Shown one piece after another: positions 3,099-53,628 of a stretch of DNA of 64,000 bases (the stretch's first letter is position 1; every line of letters starts with the position of its first letter). The notes below the pieces were generated by a model. It did no database searches and was not told the origin of the DNA. It saw only the letters and a list, made by a program, of their open reading frames with translations. Source of the DNA: an uncultured Candidatus Saccharibacteria bacterium (GTDB taxonomy: Bacteria; Patescibacteriota; 4484-211; JAGQKX01). The translations under genes and the position numbers were made by a program. Location of the stretch: NCBI GenBank assembly GCA_964392315.1, contig CAYMOT010000001.1, forward strand, positions 285,498 to 349,497, given 5' to 3'.

Positions 3099-4086
3099 GG
3101 TTTTGTGTGACACCAAGGTACTTGAAGTTTTTTGCAAACTCTTTAAAATAATATCCCAGGTTCGGTACTCGTGTAGACAACCGTTCTAATTTTCCTTCGA
3201 CTTCTACGAGTGGGTCTACAAAACGCGGTTTATTCGGTCCATAAAATTCAGCCGTTTCTTTGCCAGCATACTCAAAGAGTCTTCCGGGTGTTAGTCGATC
3301 AAGAAAAGCAAGTATTTGAGTGTCATGAGCATCACGCATTTTCTTCATCAGCACTTCATCGTCGGTGAAGAAATCATTTTCTGTTATAAGCCCCTTGGTA
3401 AGTGCTTTCTTCATTGCTTCGGCAATCAGAAAAAATGCTCCATGAGAGTTTGGGTCTAGCCAAATGAGTCGCGAGAAATTCATAAATAGAAGTGCGAAGA
3501 CTGATGCAGTCGCAGTGTCACCGAAATACATGGAGTCATCTTTGAGCTTGAGTGCACTGAGAAATTGTTGAGCCCATGTTGGTGAGAGGTAACCCATTGA
3601 GATTCCATCTCGTAAAAAGTAGTCCAATCGATCAAATGAAATGTCAGGTAAGGTGTTCTCTAAAAGCGGAAACTGATCGACATTGAGCACCGTATCTAAA
3701 AGAATTCCATGCTTGTCCAAAATGTCGGGGATTTCGGATTCTTTGATAATTTTTTCTGTAAACTGCTCATGAAACTCATGTTTTTCATCTTGTACAACAA
3801 AATCGATAACATGGGAGAATGCAGTGTGCGGCACATCATGAAGTAAACAAGCAATTTGTTCTTCGACTGGGCGTTTATACAGGAAGGACAAATACCAGAC
3901 ACCAATACTGTGCTCAAGCCGATTAACATTTCGCTGCGGTTGCAGAAAGTGCGCCGCCCCATCTTGACTGATTTTTTTGAGACGTTGCATTGGCGCACTC
4001 TGGATAAGTTCTTGAATTACAGGTTCAGTTATGTGAATCTCTTTGTATACTCTGTCTTGTATGTGCATTAAGTGATTATAGTACAT
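3085..4086 (-). CDS. HD-domain phosphohydrolase, of the dNTP triphosphohydrolase / COG1078-like type
   Basis: It has the paired motifs HSIGVWYL ... LLHDVPHTAFSH, characteristic of HD hydrolases of the dGTPase/SAMHD1 class. Confidence 0.55.
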   Translation of the reverse strand: MYYNHLMHIQDRVYKEIHITEPVIQELIQSAPMQRLKKISQDGAAHFLQPQRNVNRLEHSIGVWYLSFLYKRPVEEQIACLLHDVPHTAFSHVIDFVVQDEKHEFHEQFTEKIIKESEIPDILDKHGILLDTVLNVDQFPLLENTLPDISFDRLDYFLRDGISMGYLSPTWAQQFLSALKLKDDSMYFGDTATASVFALLFMNFSRLIWLDPNSHGAFFLIAEAMKKALTKGLITENDFFTDDEVLMKKMRDAHDTQILAFLDRLTPGRLFEYAGKETAEFYGPNKPRFVDPLVEVEGKLERLSTRVPNLGYYFKEFAKNFKYLGVTQNPTHP

Positions 4087-4094
4087 GCAGTATA

Positions 4095-4988
4095 ATGTCG
4101 ATAATGAATGGAATACAGAGGGTTAAAGGCACATCGTACATAACAATTTCGGCATTGTTTTTTGCAAGTTACGGGATTTGGAGTCGGCTCATGCACGAGA
4201 GCTTTACTCCATTTAACCAAGCGTGGAGTAGAGGACTTTTTCTATTATTCATCTGCATAGTCGCCGGATACATAACTCATCAATTTAGAAAAATCGCTCG
4301 CGTGGATCTAATATGGTTTTCGATTATTGCCCTTTGTGGCGGACTTAACCAGGCGCCGTATTATTTTGGATTTGATTACTTACCTATTGGAACAGCTACA
4401 TTGCTTTTCTATGTTTCACTCATTTTGGGCGGGTATCTTGTAGGGAAATTAGTTATGCATGAGAACATAGACAAGACGAAAGTTCTCTCATTATTTCTCT
4501 CTGTGGTAGGGATGGGAATAATCTATCGATTTAGCCTAAGCCCAAGTCAAATCTTTCCGGCCACGATGACCGTCCTTGCAGGGCTTATGGGTGCTGGGTC
4601 AGCAGTATTACCAAAAAAACTTTCGAGCGACTATTCGGAACTGCAGATACTGACTTTTACTCTCGCGTCCATGTTTATCTGTAATTTAGTTATTGCTATA
4701 GTGCTCAATCAAACGCTTCCTGAAATACAATTAAACAGTAGCTGGCTTGGTTGGCTCGCATATGCAATAAGTTTGCTAATTGCTAATCTTACAGTAATTG
4801 CAGGATTCAAATATATTGATGCAACGTGGGGTAGTATCTTAGGTACGACCGAAATTATCTTTGCAATTGTGTTTGGCATTGTATTCTTTTCAGAATCATT
4901 AACTACAAGTAGTGTTGTGGGCGGGCTCATTATGTTGTTAGCGATCTTACTTCCGTACATTCCTGTTAAGCTTTTGCGCATTGAATAG
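4095..4988 (+). CDS. EamA/DMT-family integral membrane transporter
   Basis: About 10 predicted hydrophobic helices, with a duplicated five-helix architecture typical of EamA-like transporters. Confidence 0.5.
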   Translation: MSIMNGIQRVKGTSYITISALFFASYGIWSRLMHESFTPFNQAWSRGLFLLFICIVAGYITHQFRKIARVDLIWFSIIALCGGLNQAPYYFGFDYLPIGTATLLFYVSLILGGYLVGKLVMHENIDKTKVLSLFLSVVGMGIIYRFSLSPSQIFPATMTVLAGLMGAGSAVLPKKLSSDYSELQILTFTLASMFICNLVIAIVLNQTLPEIQLNSSWLGWLAYAISLLIANLTVIAGFKYIDATWGSILGTTEIIFAIVFGIVFFSESLTTSSVVGGLIMLLAILLPYIPVKLLRIE

Positions 4989-6787: not shown

Positions 6788-6862
6788 TGGAGGCCTGGGC
6801 GGGAGTCGAACCCGCGTATAAGGGTTTTGCAGACCCTTGCCTTACCACTTGGCTACCAGGCC
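6788..6862 (-). tRNA. tRNA-Cys (anticodon GCA)
   Basis: The reverse complement reads GGCCTGGTAGCCAAGTGGTAAGGCAAGGGTCTGCAAAACCCTTATACGCGGGTTCGACTCCCGCCCAGGCCTCCA. It folds as a cloverleaf with an anticodon stem AGGGT/ACCCT, loop CTGCAAA, a GTTCGA T-loop, discriminator U and an encoded CCA. Confidence 0.85.
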
Positions 6863-7024
6863 ACCTACAAGATAAGTATGGAATGTTTTCCGTACCTGCA
6901 GTAGTTCTGAGTTTATCAAAGAATGCTGACTTGGCGTTACTGCTGGGTCTTGTTTATGCATTATACGATAAAAGTGCTACGCGCATGATAGAATACGCCC
7001 ATACCTTAATATAATAAACAAAAT

Positions 7025-20200: not shown

Positions 20201-20208
20201 TGTATAAT
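20201..20208 (+). promoter_or_regulatory. Extended -10 element TGTATAAT, 9 nt upstream of the rpsL ATG
   Basis: tgtataat spans 20201-20208, immediately after the rpoC stop. No Shine-Dalgarno sequence precedes the rpsL ATG at 20218. Confidence 0.3.
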
Positions 20209-20217
20209 GAGCACGCT

Positions 20218-20631
20218 ATGCCGACCATTAACCAACTCGTCCGATATGGACGTATGCAAAAGAATAAAAAAGTAAAGTCAACCGCGTTGCGGGGCACATG
20301 GAATTCGTTACACAGGAAAACCACACCAACAAAAAACCCCTTCAAGCGTGGTGTCTGTATTCAAGTAAAGACGATGACGCCAAAGAAGCCAAACTCAGCT
20401 TTGCGAAAGGTTGCACGTGTTCGCTTGAGTAATCGAAAAGAGATCACCGCATATATTCAAGGTGAAGGTCACAACTTACAGGAGCATAGTATCGTACTCG
20501 TGCGAGGAGGGCGTGTGCGTGACCTTCCGGGAGTAAAATATCATATTGTCCGGGGGGCACTAGATACAGGTGGTGTAGAAAAGCGAGTCTCTAGTCGAAG
20601 TAAATATGGTGCAAAACGCGCAAAAAAGTAA
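20218..20631 (+). CDS. rpsL: 30S ribosomal protein S12, with an insertion of about 11 aa in the N-terminal extension
   Basis: The sequence reads MPTINQLVR ... [28 protein letters not shown] ... [35 protein letters not shown]. The start was moved from the track's 20200 to ATG 20218. Confidence 0.93.
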
Positions 20632-35881: not shown

Positions 35882-36409
35882 ATGATAGATACAAAGAAAC
35901 CAAAAACACAAACTATGGAACAAGAACATAAAGATACTGAATATCTTGAACAACTCGTTGAGCTTAAACGTACATCCAAAAAAACCAAGGGGGGTAACAG
36001 GTTTCGTTTTGCAGCATTAGTAGTAGTAGGTGATCGAAATGGTATGGTGGGAGTTGGGGTAGGCAAAGCAAAAGATGTAAGTGCTGCGGTAAAAAAAGGT
36101 GGACGCCAAGCAAAAAAGGCCATGTTTCCCATTCAACTCGTTGGAGAAGCACGAACGATTGCACATGATGTCCGTAAAAAGTATAAATCAGCTCAAATAC
36201 TTCTCAAGCCTGCGCCGCTTGGTACGGGTATTATTGCGGGTGGAGCGATTCGTACCATTGCAGAAGCAGCAGGCATTCGGAATGTCGTGGGTAAAATTAT
36301 TGGCAGCAAAAACAAAAAAAGTAATGTAAAAGCAACGATTATGGCACTAAGAAGCATTAAACCAACATCAGCTCGCAAAATTACTCGTAAGGTATCGAAG
36401 ACTAAATAA
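35882..36409 (+). CDS. rpsE: 30S ribosomal protein S5
   Basis: It has [38 protein letters not shown]. Confidence 0.93.
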
Positions 36410-39788: not shown

Positions 39789-40190
39789 ATGGCAAAACAA
39801 ACAAAACAACAATCATCTAAAAAGACGGCAAAAAGACAGGTAGCTCCAGAGCATGGTCGAGCGTATATACAGGCAACATTTAATAATACAATCGTGACGG
39901 TGACAGATGCACAAGGACAGGTTTTGACTTGGGGTAGTTCTGGCACTGTCGGATTTAAGGGGACACGTAAATCCACTCCATATGCGGCGACCACGAGCGT
40001 GAAGGTTGTTGCGGAAAAGATTCTAGAACGCGGGATGAAATCATTAGATGTCTTTGTTAACGGTCCTGGCCTGGGTAGAGACTCGGCTGTACGCTCATTA
40101 AAAGCAGCAGGATTACAAATTAAATCAATTTCTGATATTACGCCGCTACCGCATAATGGTTGCAGGCCACGGAAGAGACGAAAGGTATAA
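39789..40190 (+). CDS. rpsK: 30S ribosomal protein S11
   Basis: It has [16 protein letters not shown] ... [13 protein letters not shown] ... [11 protein letters not shown]. Confidence 0.93.
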
Positions 40191-40199
40191 TTTTTAACT

Positions 40200-40772
40200 A
40201 TGGCACGGCATACAAAAGCAAAAAGAAAATATCAAAGAAGATTCGGGCTCATACCAGATGAACAAAGACCAGTACGTGGGACACGCCCACGCGGTAAATT
40301 GTCAGCATTCGGCGTGAGTTTGGAGCAAAAACAAAAGCTTAAATTCATCTATGGCATGCTGGAAAAACAATTTAGACGATATTACCAGGAGGCACTTCGG
40401 CAAAGAGGTAACACTGAGGAACGTTTTGTCCAGTTGCTTGAAACACGATTAGACAATGTAGTGTATCGACTTGGACTTGCACGTACTCGGGAACAAGCAC
40501 GACAGATAGTGACACATGGACATGTACTCGTTGATGGAAAAAAGGTAGATATCCCTTCATATCATGTAAAGGAAGGCCAGATCGTGACCCTCAAGGCAAA
40601 GTCTATGGAATTGCCATTCGTGAAAGAGAACATAGAAGATTCTAAAGAGCGAGAATTAGTACCGTGGTTGGTGCGTAAGGGACCTGTTGGTCAGGTAAAA
40701 TCATTACCAGCTTTGAGCCAGGTGCAACTTGATGTTGACGTATCACTCATAATTGAGTATTATTCGCGCTAG
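40200..40772 (+). CDS. rpsD: 30S ribosomal protein S4
   Basis: It has [16 protein letters not shown] ... [37 protein letters not shown], an S4 domain. Confidence 0.93.
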
Positions 40773-44906: not shown

Positions 44907-46574
44907 GCGCTTTTGTACAGGACGCAGCTTAGGTTTGATCGGTTTAGTGCAATCGTGAACGGTGATTCCTTTAAGATCTCTTGTAAATCTTGAAGCCTCC
45001 ATCACTCTACGAGTGCCGTAAATAGTTCGGTTAGCTGCACAAGAGAGATATAAATGGTCTTTTGCCCGAGTCATTGCAACATATGCGAGTCGTCTTTCTT
45101 CATCAAAGTCCGTTGCTTCTCCTTCTCTCATATGCGGCAAGACTCGTTCTTCTAAGCCTGGTAAAAATACCACTGGCCATTCCAAACCTTTACTTGCATG
45201 TATTGTCATAACGCAAATTTTCTCTGTTTTATAGGTGGTGTCTGGATCGCGGAGTATGAGCTTACTGAGTTCCAAAAAAAATGGCAGGTCTTTTTGAATG
45301 TCTCCAGTTTCGAGGATGCGGGCCTCTCGGGCAAAAAGGGTCGTTGTAGCAGGATCTACACTCGCTGCATCAAATGATTTTCTTACGAGATCAACAAGCG
45401 ATGTGTTAAACACAAGCGTAGAGGGTTGTAAGCCATTCAAACTATTCAGTGCGGAAAGGGTTTGTTCATTCGAATTCATGGTGATAGGAGAAACAGTAAC
45501 GGGTAACCCGCGGTGTACAAGTGCCTTTTTAATCACATCCATCTGGGAGCGACTTCGTACAAGAATTGCGATGTCACCGAATGTGAAAGCCCCTTCCGTA
45601 TTGCTTTCGACCGCTCCGGTGTCATAATCTTGTCGACGTATACCACCAATGAGACGATGTATCGTATCGGTAATAAACTGGGCTTCGGCTTTGTCGGATG
45701 GGGTGGTGTATAGACCAATATGACCGACGGATTGCCTTGTGGCCAATTGTGATGAGGAATTTGGAAATAATTGCTGAGATATAGTTAGTATTTCTTTGCA
45801 CGAGCGGTAATTGTTAGCAAGTGTATACCTATGAGCGTTAGGACATCCGGTTCGGAGCTCTTCGAACCCGTGGGTATTTGCACCACGAAAGCCATATATA
45901 GTCTGTAAAGGGTCACCTATCACAAATAGCGTTGACCCCTCAGAAAGCAGTAAGATAAGTGCCTGTTGTGCTTTGTTTAAATCTTGATACTCATCAACTA
46001 ATACATGTGAAAATTGATTTTGGTACTTCTGCAGTATCGCCGGATCATTCTGGAATAAACGTATTGTGTGCAAGATCAAATCATCGAAATCAATCCAGTT
46101 GTTTTCATGCAGACGAGCAGTATACGCATCTATGATGGGGCGTATAGCGGTAGGTAGTTGTGAAGAAGGTGTTGGAGAAGCTTTGTAAAGACTCAGCTGT
46201 CTTATGGTATCTTGCACCTTTGCGATACCTTGGTGTTTACAAATGTCGGATATGATTTCTGCTTGGGTGTGTTCATCAATGAGCAGGGGAAGCGTACCGG
46301 TTTCAATGTGCAGTATATTGAAGCACCATGCGTGTAGGGTTTGTATTATTGGCGGTTTGGGTGTGCGTAGCATATTGCCTACTCTTTCAGTTATTTCCGT
46401 GGCCGCTTTATGCGTGAACGTAACAGCAAGGATTTGTGAAGGATGGACACCTTGTTGAATGATGTGTGCTATGCGCATAACCAGGGTGTGTGTCTTTCCG
46501 CTTCCAGGTCCCGCAATAACCAGTATCGTTGAAGCATTACTTTGTACTGCGTTGTGTTGTGCACGATCGAGCAT
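44898..46574 (-). CDS. UvrD/PcrA/Rep-family SF1 DNA helicase, compact
   Basis: It has motif I VIAGPGSGKTH, Ia TFTHKAATE, II VLVDEYQDLN, III VIGDPLQTIYGFRGA and VI VMTIHASKGLEWPVVFL ... VAMTRAKDHL. The track start 46676 overlaps the upstream gene, so the start was moved to ATG 46572-46574, 7 nt after the EndoQ-like stop. Confidence 0.8.
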   Translation of the reverse strand: MLDRAQHNAVQSNASTILVIAGPGSGKTHTLVMRIAHIIQQGVHPSQILAVTFTHKAATEITERVGNMLRTPKPPIIQTLHAWCFNILHIETGTLPLLIDEHTQAEIISDICKHQGIAKVQDTIRQLSLYKASPTPSSQLPTAIRPIIDAYTARLHENNWIDFDDLILHTIRLFQNDPAILQKYQNQFSHVLVDEYQDLNKAQQALILLLSEGSTLFVIGDPLQTIYGFRGANTHGFEELRTGCPNAHRYTLANNYRSCKEILTISQQLFPNSSSQLATRQSVGHIGLYTTPSDKAEAQFITDTIHRLIGGIRRQDYDTGAVESNTEGAFTFGDIAILVRSRSQMDVIKKALVHRGLPVTVSPITMNSNEQTLSALNSLNGLQPSTLVFNTSLVDLVRKSFDAASVDPATTTLFAREARILETGDIQKDLPFFLELSKLILRDPDTTYKTEKICVMTIHASKGLEWPVVFLPGLEERVLPHMREGEATDFDEERRLAYVAMTRAKDHLYLSCAANRTIYGTRRVMEASRFTRDLKGITVHDCTKPIKPKLRPVQKRLF

Positions 46575-46581
46575 AGGTGCC

Positions 46582-47874
46582 TTAGATAAGCGATAATTGA
46601 TTGTCTGGGTCTTTGGTATCAATCCCGGTTCGTTCCTCTTTCGAAAAGACGTGTACCTCCCCGTATAGTCCATCATAGCCTGGGGTTATCGTAATGTCTC
46701 CTGTGCGCGTTTTCTCTATTGCAGTCGCGAGTAGCGGGGAGCTGGCTTCGGCAATGTCTTGTATTGAAAGATCCATCAGAATACGGAGCTCTGGACCAAG
46801 TTTGTGTAGCAAGTCCATATACGCGCTATTGACCGTCTTAGACTGTATGCCTTTCTGTTCAACCTCGGCAATGATTTCGTTTAAAGGAATAAGGTGCATG
46901 CACCGTTCAGGGTCTTTTGCCTCTACACGGTCGGAAAGTGCCATTACCCGATTGAGTACCCCAAGCGTCAACTTTTTGTGGCAACGAGGGCATATATTAC
47001 CTAATGTTTTGCTTTCTGAGGGATGAAGTAGTACCTCACAATTGCGATGGCCGTCATAATGGTATCGTCCTTCGTGCGGATAAAACTCTGTTGTGCCAAT
47101 AAACTGAGCCCTATCTTTTGTTTTGACTGCATCCCATATCCCGTTGTATGAGATTTCTGTGTCGAATATGCAGGTTTCCCTTCCAATGCGGGGTGCAGAG
47201 TGACTATCGGATCCAGACATGAGCGCTACAGAATCAAGTGCAGACCATAAACGGTTCATCGCCGGATCGGATGACAGTCCTGTTTCAATAGCAAATATAT
47301 GGCTCGTGAGATCTCCATAACATGCTTCGAGAGAATCAAATCCCGAATTGGATCCGAATACTGCAAAGTGTGGTGTCCATGCATGGGCGGGTACCAGGTA
47401 CGCATATGGGGTAGTCTTCGTCACCATTCGTAAAAGATCCTGGCTATCAACCCCGAGTATTGGTCTACCGTCAGAGGAAAGATTACCAATCGCTCCAAGC
47501 TGCTCATTAATCGCTTCTACTATCTCAAAACTTGGTGCGTACAAAAGGTGGTGGACTTTGCGTACTTTCTCGTCTTTCGAATAAATAGTACTCACTTCAC
47601 TTTCAAGCATAAAGAACACCTCTCTATAGCACGAAGAGGGAACTTCGCTTTTTGCTGCGCGGGTTATCTCATCGGTTGGTTTGAACAAGCCATTGTTCAT
47701 AGGGATGAGATCTTTTTGCAATTCTTGCAACCAAAGAGGGTGTGTAAAATCTCCGGTTGCCATGACGGTGATTCCTTTGAGCATCGCCCATTTAGTCAAC
47801 TCTTTTATAGATAATGATTTGCTGCAAGCGTAGGCGTAGCGAGAGTGTAAATGAAGGTCGGCAGTAAAGCGCAT
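46582..47874 (-). CDS. PHP-domain nuclease, endonuclease Q-like (TIGR00375-type)
   Basis: It has the PHP metal motifs ADLHLHSRYAY and ATGDFTHPLW, plus VHHLL, SDGRP, VPAHAWTP and SGSDSHS. A central Cys cluster (HRNCEV ... ICPRCH) looks like a zinc finger, and the C-terminus reads GYDGLYGEV. The architecture matches archaeal/Bacillus EndoQ. The start is at ATG 47872-47874 (MRFTADLHLHS). Confidence 0.6.
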   Translation of the reverse strand: MRFTADLHLHSRYAYACSKSLSIKELTKWAMLKGITVMATGDFTHPLWLQELQKDLIPMNNGLFKPTDEITRAAKSEVPSSCYREVFFMLESEVSTIYSKDEKVRKVHHLLYAPSFEIVEAINEQLGAIGNLSSDGRPILGVDSQDLLRMVTKTTPYAYLVPAHAWTPHFAVFGSNSGFDSLEACYGDLTSHIFAIETGLSSDPAMNRLWSALDSVALMSGSDSHSAPRIGRETCIFDTEISYNGIWDAVKTKDRAQFIGTTEFYPHEGRYHYDGHRNCEVLLHPSESKTLGNICPRCHKKLTLGVLNRVMALSDRVEAKDPERCMHLIPLNEIIAEVEQKGIQSKTVNSAYMDLLHKLGPELRILMDLSIQDIAEASSPLLATAIEKTRTGDITITPGYDGLYGEVHVFSKEERTGIDTKDPDNQLSLI

Positions 47875-47880
47875 GTAGGC

Positions 47881-47888
47881 ATTATAAT
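47881..47888. promoter_or_regulatory. Palindromic -10 element ATTATAAT shared by the divergent EndoQ-like and methyltransferase genes
   Basis: On the minus strand a TATAAT sits 6 nt upstream of the EndoQ-like ATG (47874). On the plus strand a TATAAT (47883-47888) sits 8 nt upstream of the methyltransferase ATG (47897). Neither gene has a Shine-Dalgarno sequence. Confidence 0.4.
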
Positions 47889-47896
47889 ATGTAAAT

Positions 47897-48646
47897 ATGC
47901 AAATCAACGAATTTGCCTACCTGCGCAGGCAGGCAAATAATGACCGGTGGCAACACTCGTATCTCAACCTCAAACATCGGCGGATGCTCTTTCCTGATAA
48001 GCCGAGTGGTGCAGGAAGGCAGTTGTTAGAATTTTTAGATTCGCAGTCTGAATTTGATAAGTCTATGGCAGCGGTACTTGATATTGGGTGCGGAAATGGA
48101 AGGAATGCATTTGCTCTCGCACTGGATGGGTTTGGGCAAGTAATAGGATTTGATATCATTCCCCAAGCTATACAAGATGCAACTCAACACGCTGAAGACT
48201 CCGGTTTACAGAACGTAATGTTCACCATACACAATGTTGAAAATCCATGGCCGTTTGACAATGCAACATTTAATGTCGCCATTGACGTAAATACTTTTTC
48301 ATCTCTGTTGTCTGATGTGCGGACAATATATATTAATGAGCTTGTTCGGGTACTTGATGTGGGTGGTTACTTTTTTTTAACAACATACACCCTGCAGGAC
48401 GGCTATTACAATTCTTTCGTTGCGCATGATTCGGAGAGGCTATATCCAGGTATTGGGATAGTCTGTCCAGATGACAATATCGCACGTGTTTTGTACACAC
48501 CTGAGGAACTTAAAGAAATATTCGCTACGGTTTCAGATGGGCAATTGTCTGTTATGGGCACAAACGTTCACACGTGGTACGGCAAAATGTTTGATCGCTA
48601 TTATAAGCGAGAATTTTGTTCATTTGTTTTTAAAAAACATGAGTAA
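47897..48646 (+). CDS. Class I SAM-dependent methyltransferase
   Basis: Motif I reads VLDIGCGNGRNAFALALDGF ... VIGFDI. Confidence 0.7.
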   Translation: MQINEFAYLRRQANNDRWQHSYLNLKHRRMLFPDKPSGAGRQLLEFLDSQSEFDKSMAAVLDIGCGNGRNAFALALDGFGQVIGFDIIPQAIQDATQHAEDSGLQNVMFTIHNVENPWPFDNATFNVAIDVNTFSSLLSDVRTIYINELVRVLDVGGYFFLTTYTLQDGYYNSFVAHDSERLYPGIGIVCPDDNIARVLYTPEELKEIFATVSDGQLSVMGTNVHTWYGKMFDRYYKREFCSFVFKKHE

Positions 48647-49322: not shown

Positions 49323-49383
49323 CGTCTGTTAGTACATTGCCAAGGAGAGCTGCCGGGCGTATATTTTAATAAGCACTACTCCT

Positions 49384-53468: not shown

Positions 53469-53628
53469 GATAGTAATAGTCAAATAGTACTAATAAACAA
53501 ATAATCAAATCTACAAATCAATGTTTTGATAGAGATTATAGCAATTATTCTTGGTAGAAACCAAAATGCCCCGGGGTAGACATATGTCAGTATATATATC
53601 CCCTTGTAATGTATGCTACAATCGCTAC

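Follow-up and report, generated by a model that had tools for sequence, protein, structure and literature searches.

Can one eight-base palindrome serve as the -10 element of two divergent genes, with both messages starting at or next to their own start codons? The question is raised by a junction in a stretch of bacterial DNA of 64,000 nt (hereafter the window), in which a gene of the endonuclease Q (EndoQ) family on the minus strand and a gene for a class I S-adenosylmethionine (SAM)-dependent methyltransferase on the plus strand are read away from each other, with exactly 22 nt between their start codons (47875-47896). The palindrome ATTATAAT (47881-47888) lies within this gap. It occurred once in the window versus 2.15 copies expected by chance; a single copy is no more than chance would give, so the argument rests on the position of the octamer and on its conservation. 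On these grounds, ATTATAAT is likely to be the core in which two sigma-70-type promoters, placed back to back, have fused, and to give rise to two leaderless or near-leaderless messages.

The octamer is a perfect palindrome and holds two perfect TATAAT hexamers, one on each strand, with 4 bp (TATA) in common. On the plus strand, the predicted -10 hexamer of the methyltransferase transcript (TATAAT, 47883-47888) was followed by the 8-nt spacer ATGTAAAT (47889-47896) and then by the ATG at 47897-47899, which opens the reading frame 47897-48646. On the minus strand, the predicted -10 hexamer of the EndoQ-family transcript (TATAAT, 47886 to 47881) was followed by a 6-nt spacer, the discriminator region GCCTAC (47875-47880), and by an ATG read from CAT at 47872-47874, with its A at 47874, which opens the protein MRFTADLHLHS. 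The original prediction had placed the two start codons at 47874 and 47897 and the palindrome at 47881-47888, with a 22-bp gap and spacings of 6 and 8 nt; all of these values were exact when the sequence was read again. A two-codon reading frame, ATG-TAA, sits inside ATGTAAAT (47889-47894) and abuts the plus-strand TATAAT. No operator was evident within the 22-nt gap, and an Rfam search of the window returned two tRNAs alone, so no known RNA element accounts for the junction.

Both start codons were borne out by homology. The minus-strand gene (46582-47874, 430 aa) was assigned from its TIGR00375 alignment, the N-termini of its homologues and PF27218 on those homologues. TIGR00375 aligned with residues 5-407 of the protein over profile positions 2-374 (E = 1e-44), with a score of 153 bits against a cut-off of 326.6, and the local copy of Pfam gave no match. 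Homologues at 51-74% identity carry precomputed PF27218 matches, and some are labelled 'endonuclease Q family protein'; judged by these similarities, the protein probably belongs to the endonuclease Q/TIGR00375/PF27218 family. The motif DLHxH starts at residue 6 in 114 of the 120 best homologues (M-x-F-x-A-D-L-H), identical to the window gene. A uvrD-like helicase gene lies 8 nt downstream, with a probable start at 46574, and locus L001, which shares the window's junction, showed EndoQ synteny with a UvrD of 558 aa.

The methyltransferase gene (249 aa) was assigned from Pfam, the alignment of homologues and the gene order in relatives. Residues 56-167 matched Methyltransf_31 at 72.4 bits (cut-off 27), Methyltransf_25 at 61.4 and Methyltransf_11 at 54.0, and the glycine-rich loop of motif I, LDIGCGNG, was invariant in the homologue alignment. 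Relatives were few (11 matches). A scan of genome contigs with the methyltransferase alignment recovered only methyltransferases of 24-36% identity from many phyla and no close relatives, being driven by the generic motif I peptide. Conservation begins at about residue 15-18 (NDRWQHSY, with the conserved W18), residues 15-29 being NDRWQHSYLNLKHRR. The frame is closed upstream by the TAA at 47885-47887, within the palindrome itself, and between this stop and M30 the ATG at 47897 is the sole ATG, GTG or TTG in frame. The conservation of residues 15-29 and the lack of another canonical start together indicate that ATG 47897 is the start of the gene. Independent gene calls in further assemblies with this sequence or a nearly identical one gave the same 22-nt gap.

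The divergent junction was compared in eight sequence-distinct versions, including that of the window and L001. On every contig found, truB was followed by uvrD and endoQ on one strand, with the methyltransferase and its followers on the opposite strand, usually in the order methyltransferase, FNR-like oxidoreductase, response regulator and histidine kinase. Four lineages carried the fused ATTATAAT. In the window and L001, with 22 nt between the starts, TATAAT stood 6 nt before the EndoQ ATG and 8 nt before the methyltransferase ATG. The starts were 20 nt apart in L002, in L004 and in L007 (with L008 and L089-91), and TATAAT stood 6 nt away on both sides, counted on the methyltransferase side of L004 and of the L007 group to the second in-frame ATG. 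The boxes were separate in the other four lineages. L005 had 44 nt between the starts, with TATAAT 6 nt before the EndoQ ATG and TGaTATGAT 9 nt before the methyltransferase ATG; L006 (with L092-94) had 46 nt, with TATAAT at 6 nt and TGgTATGAT at 9 nt; L003 had 38 nt, with TGgTATACT at 6 nt on both sides; and L095 (GCA_020429905.1) had 65 nt, with TATAAT at 6 nt and 8 nt, respectively.

Thus the EndoQ-side hexamer was 6 nt from its ATG in all eight lineages while the spacer sequence varied, and the methyltransferase-side spacing was 6, 8 or 9 nt, with TATAAT, TATGAT or TATACT as the hexamer. The extended -10 motif TGn was present on four of the eight boxes of the separate-box lineages. Among the four fused lineages, ATTATAAT was invariant at 8/8 positions, and the adjoining 6-nt spacer differed at five of its six positions; the methyltransferases of L002, L004 and the L003-type L007 are 58-60% identical to that of the window. 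The methyltransferase-side spacer of the closest fused-box relatives was 6 nt long, atgcaa or atgctc. Such conservation of box and spacing is the pattern expected of functional -10 elements set for leaderless transcription on both sides. The spacing kept in these eight lineages also supports the proposal of the original prediction that one shared -10 element would drive leaderless, or nearly leaderless, transcription both ways. From the same comparison, two separate boxes, still 38-65 nt from start to start in the more distant relatives, appear to have merged into one palindrome in the window's clade; such a merger would bring the starts to 20-22 nt, near the minimum for two promoters of this kind. 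The ATG that abuts TATAAT (47889 in the window) was kept unchanged in the four fused-box lineages, although no reason for this is apparent, and in L002, L004 and L007 it is in the methyltransferase frame.

When methyltransferase starts were set by a -10 hexamer followed by 6-9 nt, seven lineages shared a uniform N-terminus, M-x-x-x-W. Automatic calls were ragged (MLMDTMW, MQMDNMW or truncated to MLFP) and were at odds with the -10-based model in three of the seven relative lineages (L004, L006 and L007). Calls were placed at the TATAAT-abutting ATG in L004 (1599), L007 (286) and L089 (2986), and were cut to the MLFP methionine in L006 (3001), L092 (2906) and L094 (1988). Automatic callers seem to misplace starts in these genomes, and the calls listed here look wrong.

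The association between TATAAT and gene starts was not confined to the junction. A perfect TATAAT lay 6-9 nt before 7 of 87 candidate gene-start ATGs in the window versus 2 of 2113 other ATGs (Fisher p = 4e-9); one of those two was the methyltransferase ATG itself, which had been dropped from the greedy open reading frame (ORF) set. Similarly, 9 of 42 TATAAT copies were found 5-11 nt before the ATG of a long ORF, versus 25 of 926 copies of the 19 remaining A3T3 hexamers. The window signal agrees with what has been published for leaderless genes, namely a Pribnow box at 6-8 nt before the start (PMC6028130). By contrast, Shine-Dalgarno (SD) 4-mers were not enriched upstream of window gene starts (13/88 vs 251/2112, p = 0.25), nor were 5-mers, and the organism seems to make little use of SD pairing. 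The absence of an SD sequence therefore cannot separate leaderless from leadered genes here; it had been correctly noted for both sides of the junction, but it is uninformative. Most ribosomal protein genes in the window were preceded by A/T-rich sequence.

The EndoQ side of the arrangement recurred far from this clade. Metagenome contigs were scanned for TATAAT-N6-ATG joined to an EndoQ-type N-terminus, and 64 loci (L097-L160) in 53 distinct contexts were recovered. TGn was directly upstream of TATAAT in 35 of the 53 contexts, where about 3 were expected by chance; since TGn was outside the search pattern, this excess indicates that the boxes are real promoters. Most contexts had a C-rich spacer from the -10 hexamer to the ATG (cccgcc in 11), and several boxes came straight after a terminator-like hairpin. 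ATTATAAT was present in none of these 53 contexts. Leaderless expression of EndoQ-family genes thus seems common well beyond the window's clade, in many unrelated bacteria, as seen with a scan that required the motif.

While the start codons, the geometry, the -10 spacing in eight lineages and the association of TATAAT with gene starts are direct observations, we infer the transcription start sites, the use of the box in two directions and translation by the leaderless route. RNA polymerase would bind ATTATAAT in either orientation, one binding excluding the other. Read on the minus strand, transcription would start at the A of the EndoQ ATG (47874), or one base away at most, and yield a leaderless endoQ-uvrD message; read on the plus strand, it would start at 47895-47897 and yield a methyltransferase-oxidoreductase message whose leader is 0-2 nt long. 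Transcription usually starts about 7 nt beyond the final base of the -10 hexamer (PMC12825309), which predicts a minus-strand start at the A at 47874 and a plus-strand start at 47895, or up to 47897 with longer spacing. The divergent start sites would then be 21-23 bp apart. The two orientations would begin melting at neighboring base pairs (47884 and 47885), because each polymerase recognizes the non-template strand, and would open the DNA in opposite directions. Without the help of an SD sequence, ribosomes would engage the AUG directly at the 5' end or close to it. Over its first 70 nt, the EndoQ message had a folding energy of -3.6 kcal/mol, and 195 of 200 shuffled sequences folded more stably; a 5' end so unusually unstructured suits initiation from the 5' terminus. 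In Escherichia coli, competition between orientations appears to matter only if one direction is strongly activated (PMC12825309).

Compared with L002, L004 and L007, the 5' end of the window's methyltransferase gene carries a lineage-specific 41-nt insertion (47898-47938, plus strand), which adds 13 residues (QINEFAYLRRQAN...) and moves the start from 6 to 8 nt past the -10 hexamer. Within it lies the strongest palindrome in the window, the 28-bp ATTTGCCTACCTGCGCAGGCAGGCAAAT (47911-47938), which occurs nowhere else in the window and, of the other loci fetched, only in L001. An apparent 8-bp tandem copy, ATGTAAAT/ATGCAAAT, precedes the insertion, and GCAAAT is repeated at both ends. As RNA, ATTTGCCTACCTGCGCAGGCAGGCAAAT forms a stable hairpin, and the methyltransferase message has 16 free nt ahead of it. 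The insertion with its palindrome might act as an operator or as an RNA hairpin, or it might be a small element that was inserted there. A role for ATTTGCCTACCTGCGCAGGCAGGCAAAT as a minus-strand terminator was rejected, for no minus-strand gene lies upstream and the palindrome sits in the methyltransferase reading frame.

Several points weigh against two leaderless promoters on ATTATAAT. A consensus promoter scan found no recognizable -35 element at 16-18 nt and no TGn extension in either direction, and without a -35 match at that distance the site was left unlisted by the scan; the closest -35-like element was TTGATT at 15 nt on the EndoQ side. Given these poor elements, both promoters may be weak or factor-dependent. 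Leaderless-rich bacteria typically show poor -35 elements, so we take the missing match as weak counter-evidence. With the 8-nt spacing, the methyltransferase message would probably carry one or two extra bases, and the stable hairpin beginning 17 nt into it could hinder initiation at the 5' end. Because most window genes lack an SD sequence, the methyltransferase could also be translated from a leadered message that has none and that is transcribed from a promoter within the EndoQ gene. Finally, the four fused-box lineages probably represent one fusion event that was maintained, and not four origins.

That possibility leads to the first of three competing explanations, in which the box is a leaderless promoter for the EndoQ-family gene only, and the methyltransferase operon is served by an upstream promoter inside the EndoQ coding sequence through a leadered, SD-less message. 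The EndoQ side is indeed better supported, with its spacing fixed at 6 nt and with TGnTATAAT-N6-ATG before many unrelated EndoQ genes. SD-less leadered translation must also be common where SD sequences are not enriched at gene starts, and the 8-nt spacing and the hairpin near the 5' end are more easily accommodated by a leadered methyltransferase message. However, in the separate-box relatives the methyltransferase retains a -10 hexamer of its own, 6-9 nt from the ATG and often extended by TGn, indicating that this gene is leaderless where the boxes are unfused. A purine-rich, GGAG- or AGGG-like hexamer about 10 nt before the first in-frame, TATAAT-abutting ATG of L002, L004 and L007 might be taken for the methyltransferase's SD sequence. 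This G-rich hexamer adjoins the EndoQ start and is complementary to the C-rich spacer, which EndoQ genes lacking a divergent neighbor carry as well, and in the window the nearest ATG, abutting TATAAT, immediately meets the stop TAA; it was rejected as an SD sequence on both counts. We regard transcription of the EndoQ gene alone from the box as rather unlikely.

A role as a dimeric-regulator operator, or no role at all in AT-rich intergenic DNA, would agree with the chance-level count of ATTATAAT in 64 kb, with the failure to find a -35 element and with the typically palindromic form of protein-binding sites. Neither would predict that all eight positions are kept at 58-60% protein identity to the window's methyltransferase while neighboring bases have diverged, that the spacing to both ATGs is exact or that TATAAT is strongly associated with gene starts across the window; moreover, distant relatives have two ordinary -10 boxes at this place and no conserved palindrome. 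A palindrome without a two-way promoter role is thus very unlikely. It is barely credible that one or both start codons are mis-assigned, which would change the gap and put the box inside a gene or leader. The mechanical ORF list does run the minus-strand ORF to TTG 47907 (MICIFTYYNAYM...), and one homologue, P0007, is called from the MLFP methionine that corresponds to M30 of the window (47984, MLFPDKPSG). But the 11-residue extension from TTG 47907 is absent from the 114 of 120 EndoQ homologues that open with M-x-F-x-A-D-L-H, the P0007 locus has an upstream in-frame ATG (MQNQW) with TGgTATGAT 9 nt before it, and the conserved residues 15-29 of the window methyltransferase lie ahead of M30. 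The alternatives named in the original prediction, an EndoQ start at 47907 and a methyltransferase start at a downstream ATG, were thereby excluded.

Other window genes also resembled leaderless genes. Candidates on the basis of a TATAAT upstream of the start are alaS (ATG 7025; TATAAT 7010-7015, 9 nt), rpsL (MPTINQL; ATG 20218; 9 nt, 20203-20220), rpsD (ATG 40200; 8 nt, 40186-40202) and a YibE/F-family gene (ATG 51824; 8 nt). The TATAAT boxes of rpsL and rpsD sit in or just past the preceding gene, which suggests leaderless promoters inside the rpoBC-rpsL cluster and the ribosomal protein cluster. A second leaderless-looking divergent pair was formed by two further candidates, a minus-strand HD-domain gene (ATG 4068; TATAAT 4080-4075, 6 nt) and a plus-strand gene for an EamA-family transporter (ATG 4104; TATAAT 4091-4096, 7 nt); its boxes are separate, non-overlapping and 10 bp apart, and the mechanical ORF starts at 4086 and 4095 are probably wrong. 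Minus-strand TATAAT copies were also seen 66 nt upstream of tRNA-Pro (53535-53540; tRNA at 53469), opposite a divergent plus-strand gene, and 98 nt upstream of tRNA-Cys (6960-6965; tRNA at 6862), opposite divergent alaS with its own TATAAT. Downstream of the junction, the FNR-like oxidoreductase gene comes next after the methyltransferase gene and overlaps its 3' end. The best conventional promoter match of the region (TTGCCA, 17 nt, TATATT; 49337-49365) stands before the response-regulator gene (ATG 49384) and predicts an SD-less leader of about 12 nt. With such a predicted promoter at this point, the methyltransferase-oxidoreductase pair is probably a transcription unit separate from the two-component genes.

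The window carries rpoB/rpoC and a ribosomal protein cluster and has a G+C content of 43%. The genes for S5 (35882-36409) and L15 (36411-36842) adjoin, with no uL30 gene between them; a missing uL30 between the uS5 and uL15 genes is a hallmark of the Candidate Phyla Radiation (CPR) (PMC9297842). The nearest named relative is the syntenic L095, whose EndoQ protein is named as that of a 'candidate division WWE3 bacterium'. Together, these features indicate that the host is probably a WWE3-like CPR bacterium. The chances are about even for the broader picture, in which such a lineage has many leaderless first-in-operon genes (rpsL, rpsD, alaS and the DNA-repair operon), shows no SD enrichment at window gene starts and has merged two promoters into an 8-bp palindrome, while EndoQ is leaderless in many unrelated bacteria.

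If these readings are correct, the junction is a very compact natural bidirectional promoter, with two perfect -10 hexamers in 8 bp serving two leaderless operons across a gap of 20-22 nt. Across the relatives, the distance between start codons falls from 65 to 20 nt, which would approach the minimum size of a functional divergent control region in bacteria, and the relatives appear to record the fusion of two separate promoters. The element would also offer a clean substrate for competition between RNA polymerase orientations, since one substitution, at either 47881 or 47888, is expected to silence a single direction. Leaderless expression would extend to the CPR, whose transcription and translation signals are almost unstudied. 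On the practical side, automatic callers would be misplacing gene starts in such genomes, as the disagreement with the -10-based model in L004, L006 and L007 illustrates. The junction is neat, conserved and useful as a model; it would not surprise a specialist.

In E. coli, 19% of start sites are attributable to overlapping -10 elements with divergent transcription; such elements are found across bacteria, and start-site separations of 18, 10 and 23 bp are the commonest in E. coli (bioRxiv 10.1101/2020.01.31.928960; PMC12825309). RNA polymerase binds these promoters in one of two orientations, and, compared with directional promoters, those of the bidirectional kind more often produce mRNA (Warman, Forrest, Wade and Grainger; bioRxiv 10.1101/2020.01.31.928960; PMC12825309). 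The window element resembles them in being a short pseudo-symmetrical element with -10 hexamers on both strands, the divergent starts of the known promoters being 7-25 bp apart. It differs from the commonest E. coli arrangements in that its hexamers overlap by 4 bp, with a predicted separation of 21-23 bp; since TATA is self-complementary, this overlap permits a perfect TATAAT on both strands. Unlike the E. coli promoters, both of its products are predicted to be leaderless mRNAs, and its host is probably an uncultured CPR bacterium.

The leaderless genes that GeneMarkS-2 places in 'group C' (Actinobacteria, Deinococcus-Thermus; PMC6028130, PMC4007540) likewise have an AUG start and no room for an SD sequence, and they are many per genome. 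Group C genomes use SD sequences for leadered and internal genes, whereas the remaining genes of the window showed no SD enrichment; the published survey left out CPR bacteria (PMC6028130, PMC4007540). Within partial coverage of the literature, nothing relevant was found on leaderless genes in CPR/Patescibacteria, nor was a description found of a divergent pair with both sides leaderless on one palindrome. The csoR-cueA divergon of Bradyrhizobium liaoningense (PMC5057107) resembles the window pair in its divergent genes and partly overlapping -10 elements. There, csoR was mapped as a leaderless transcript, the leader of cueA is 42 nt long, and the shared -10 region is partly covered by a repressor box that overlaps it (PMC5057107); the window pair differs in that both sides are predicted to be leaderless and no operator was evident in its 22-nt gap. 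Bidirectional promoters with a shared -10 element and leaderless genes are thus already well described, and the window case is the same kind of element and involves no new mechanism.

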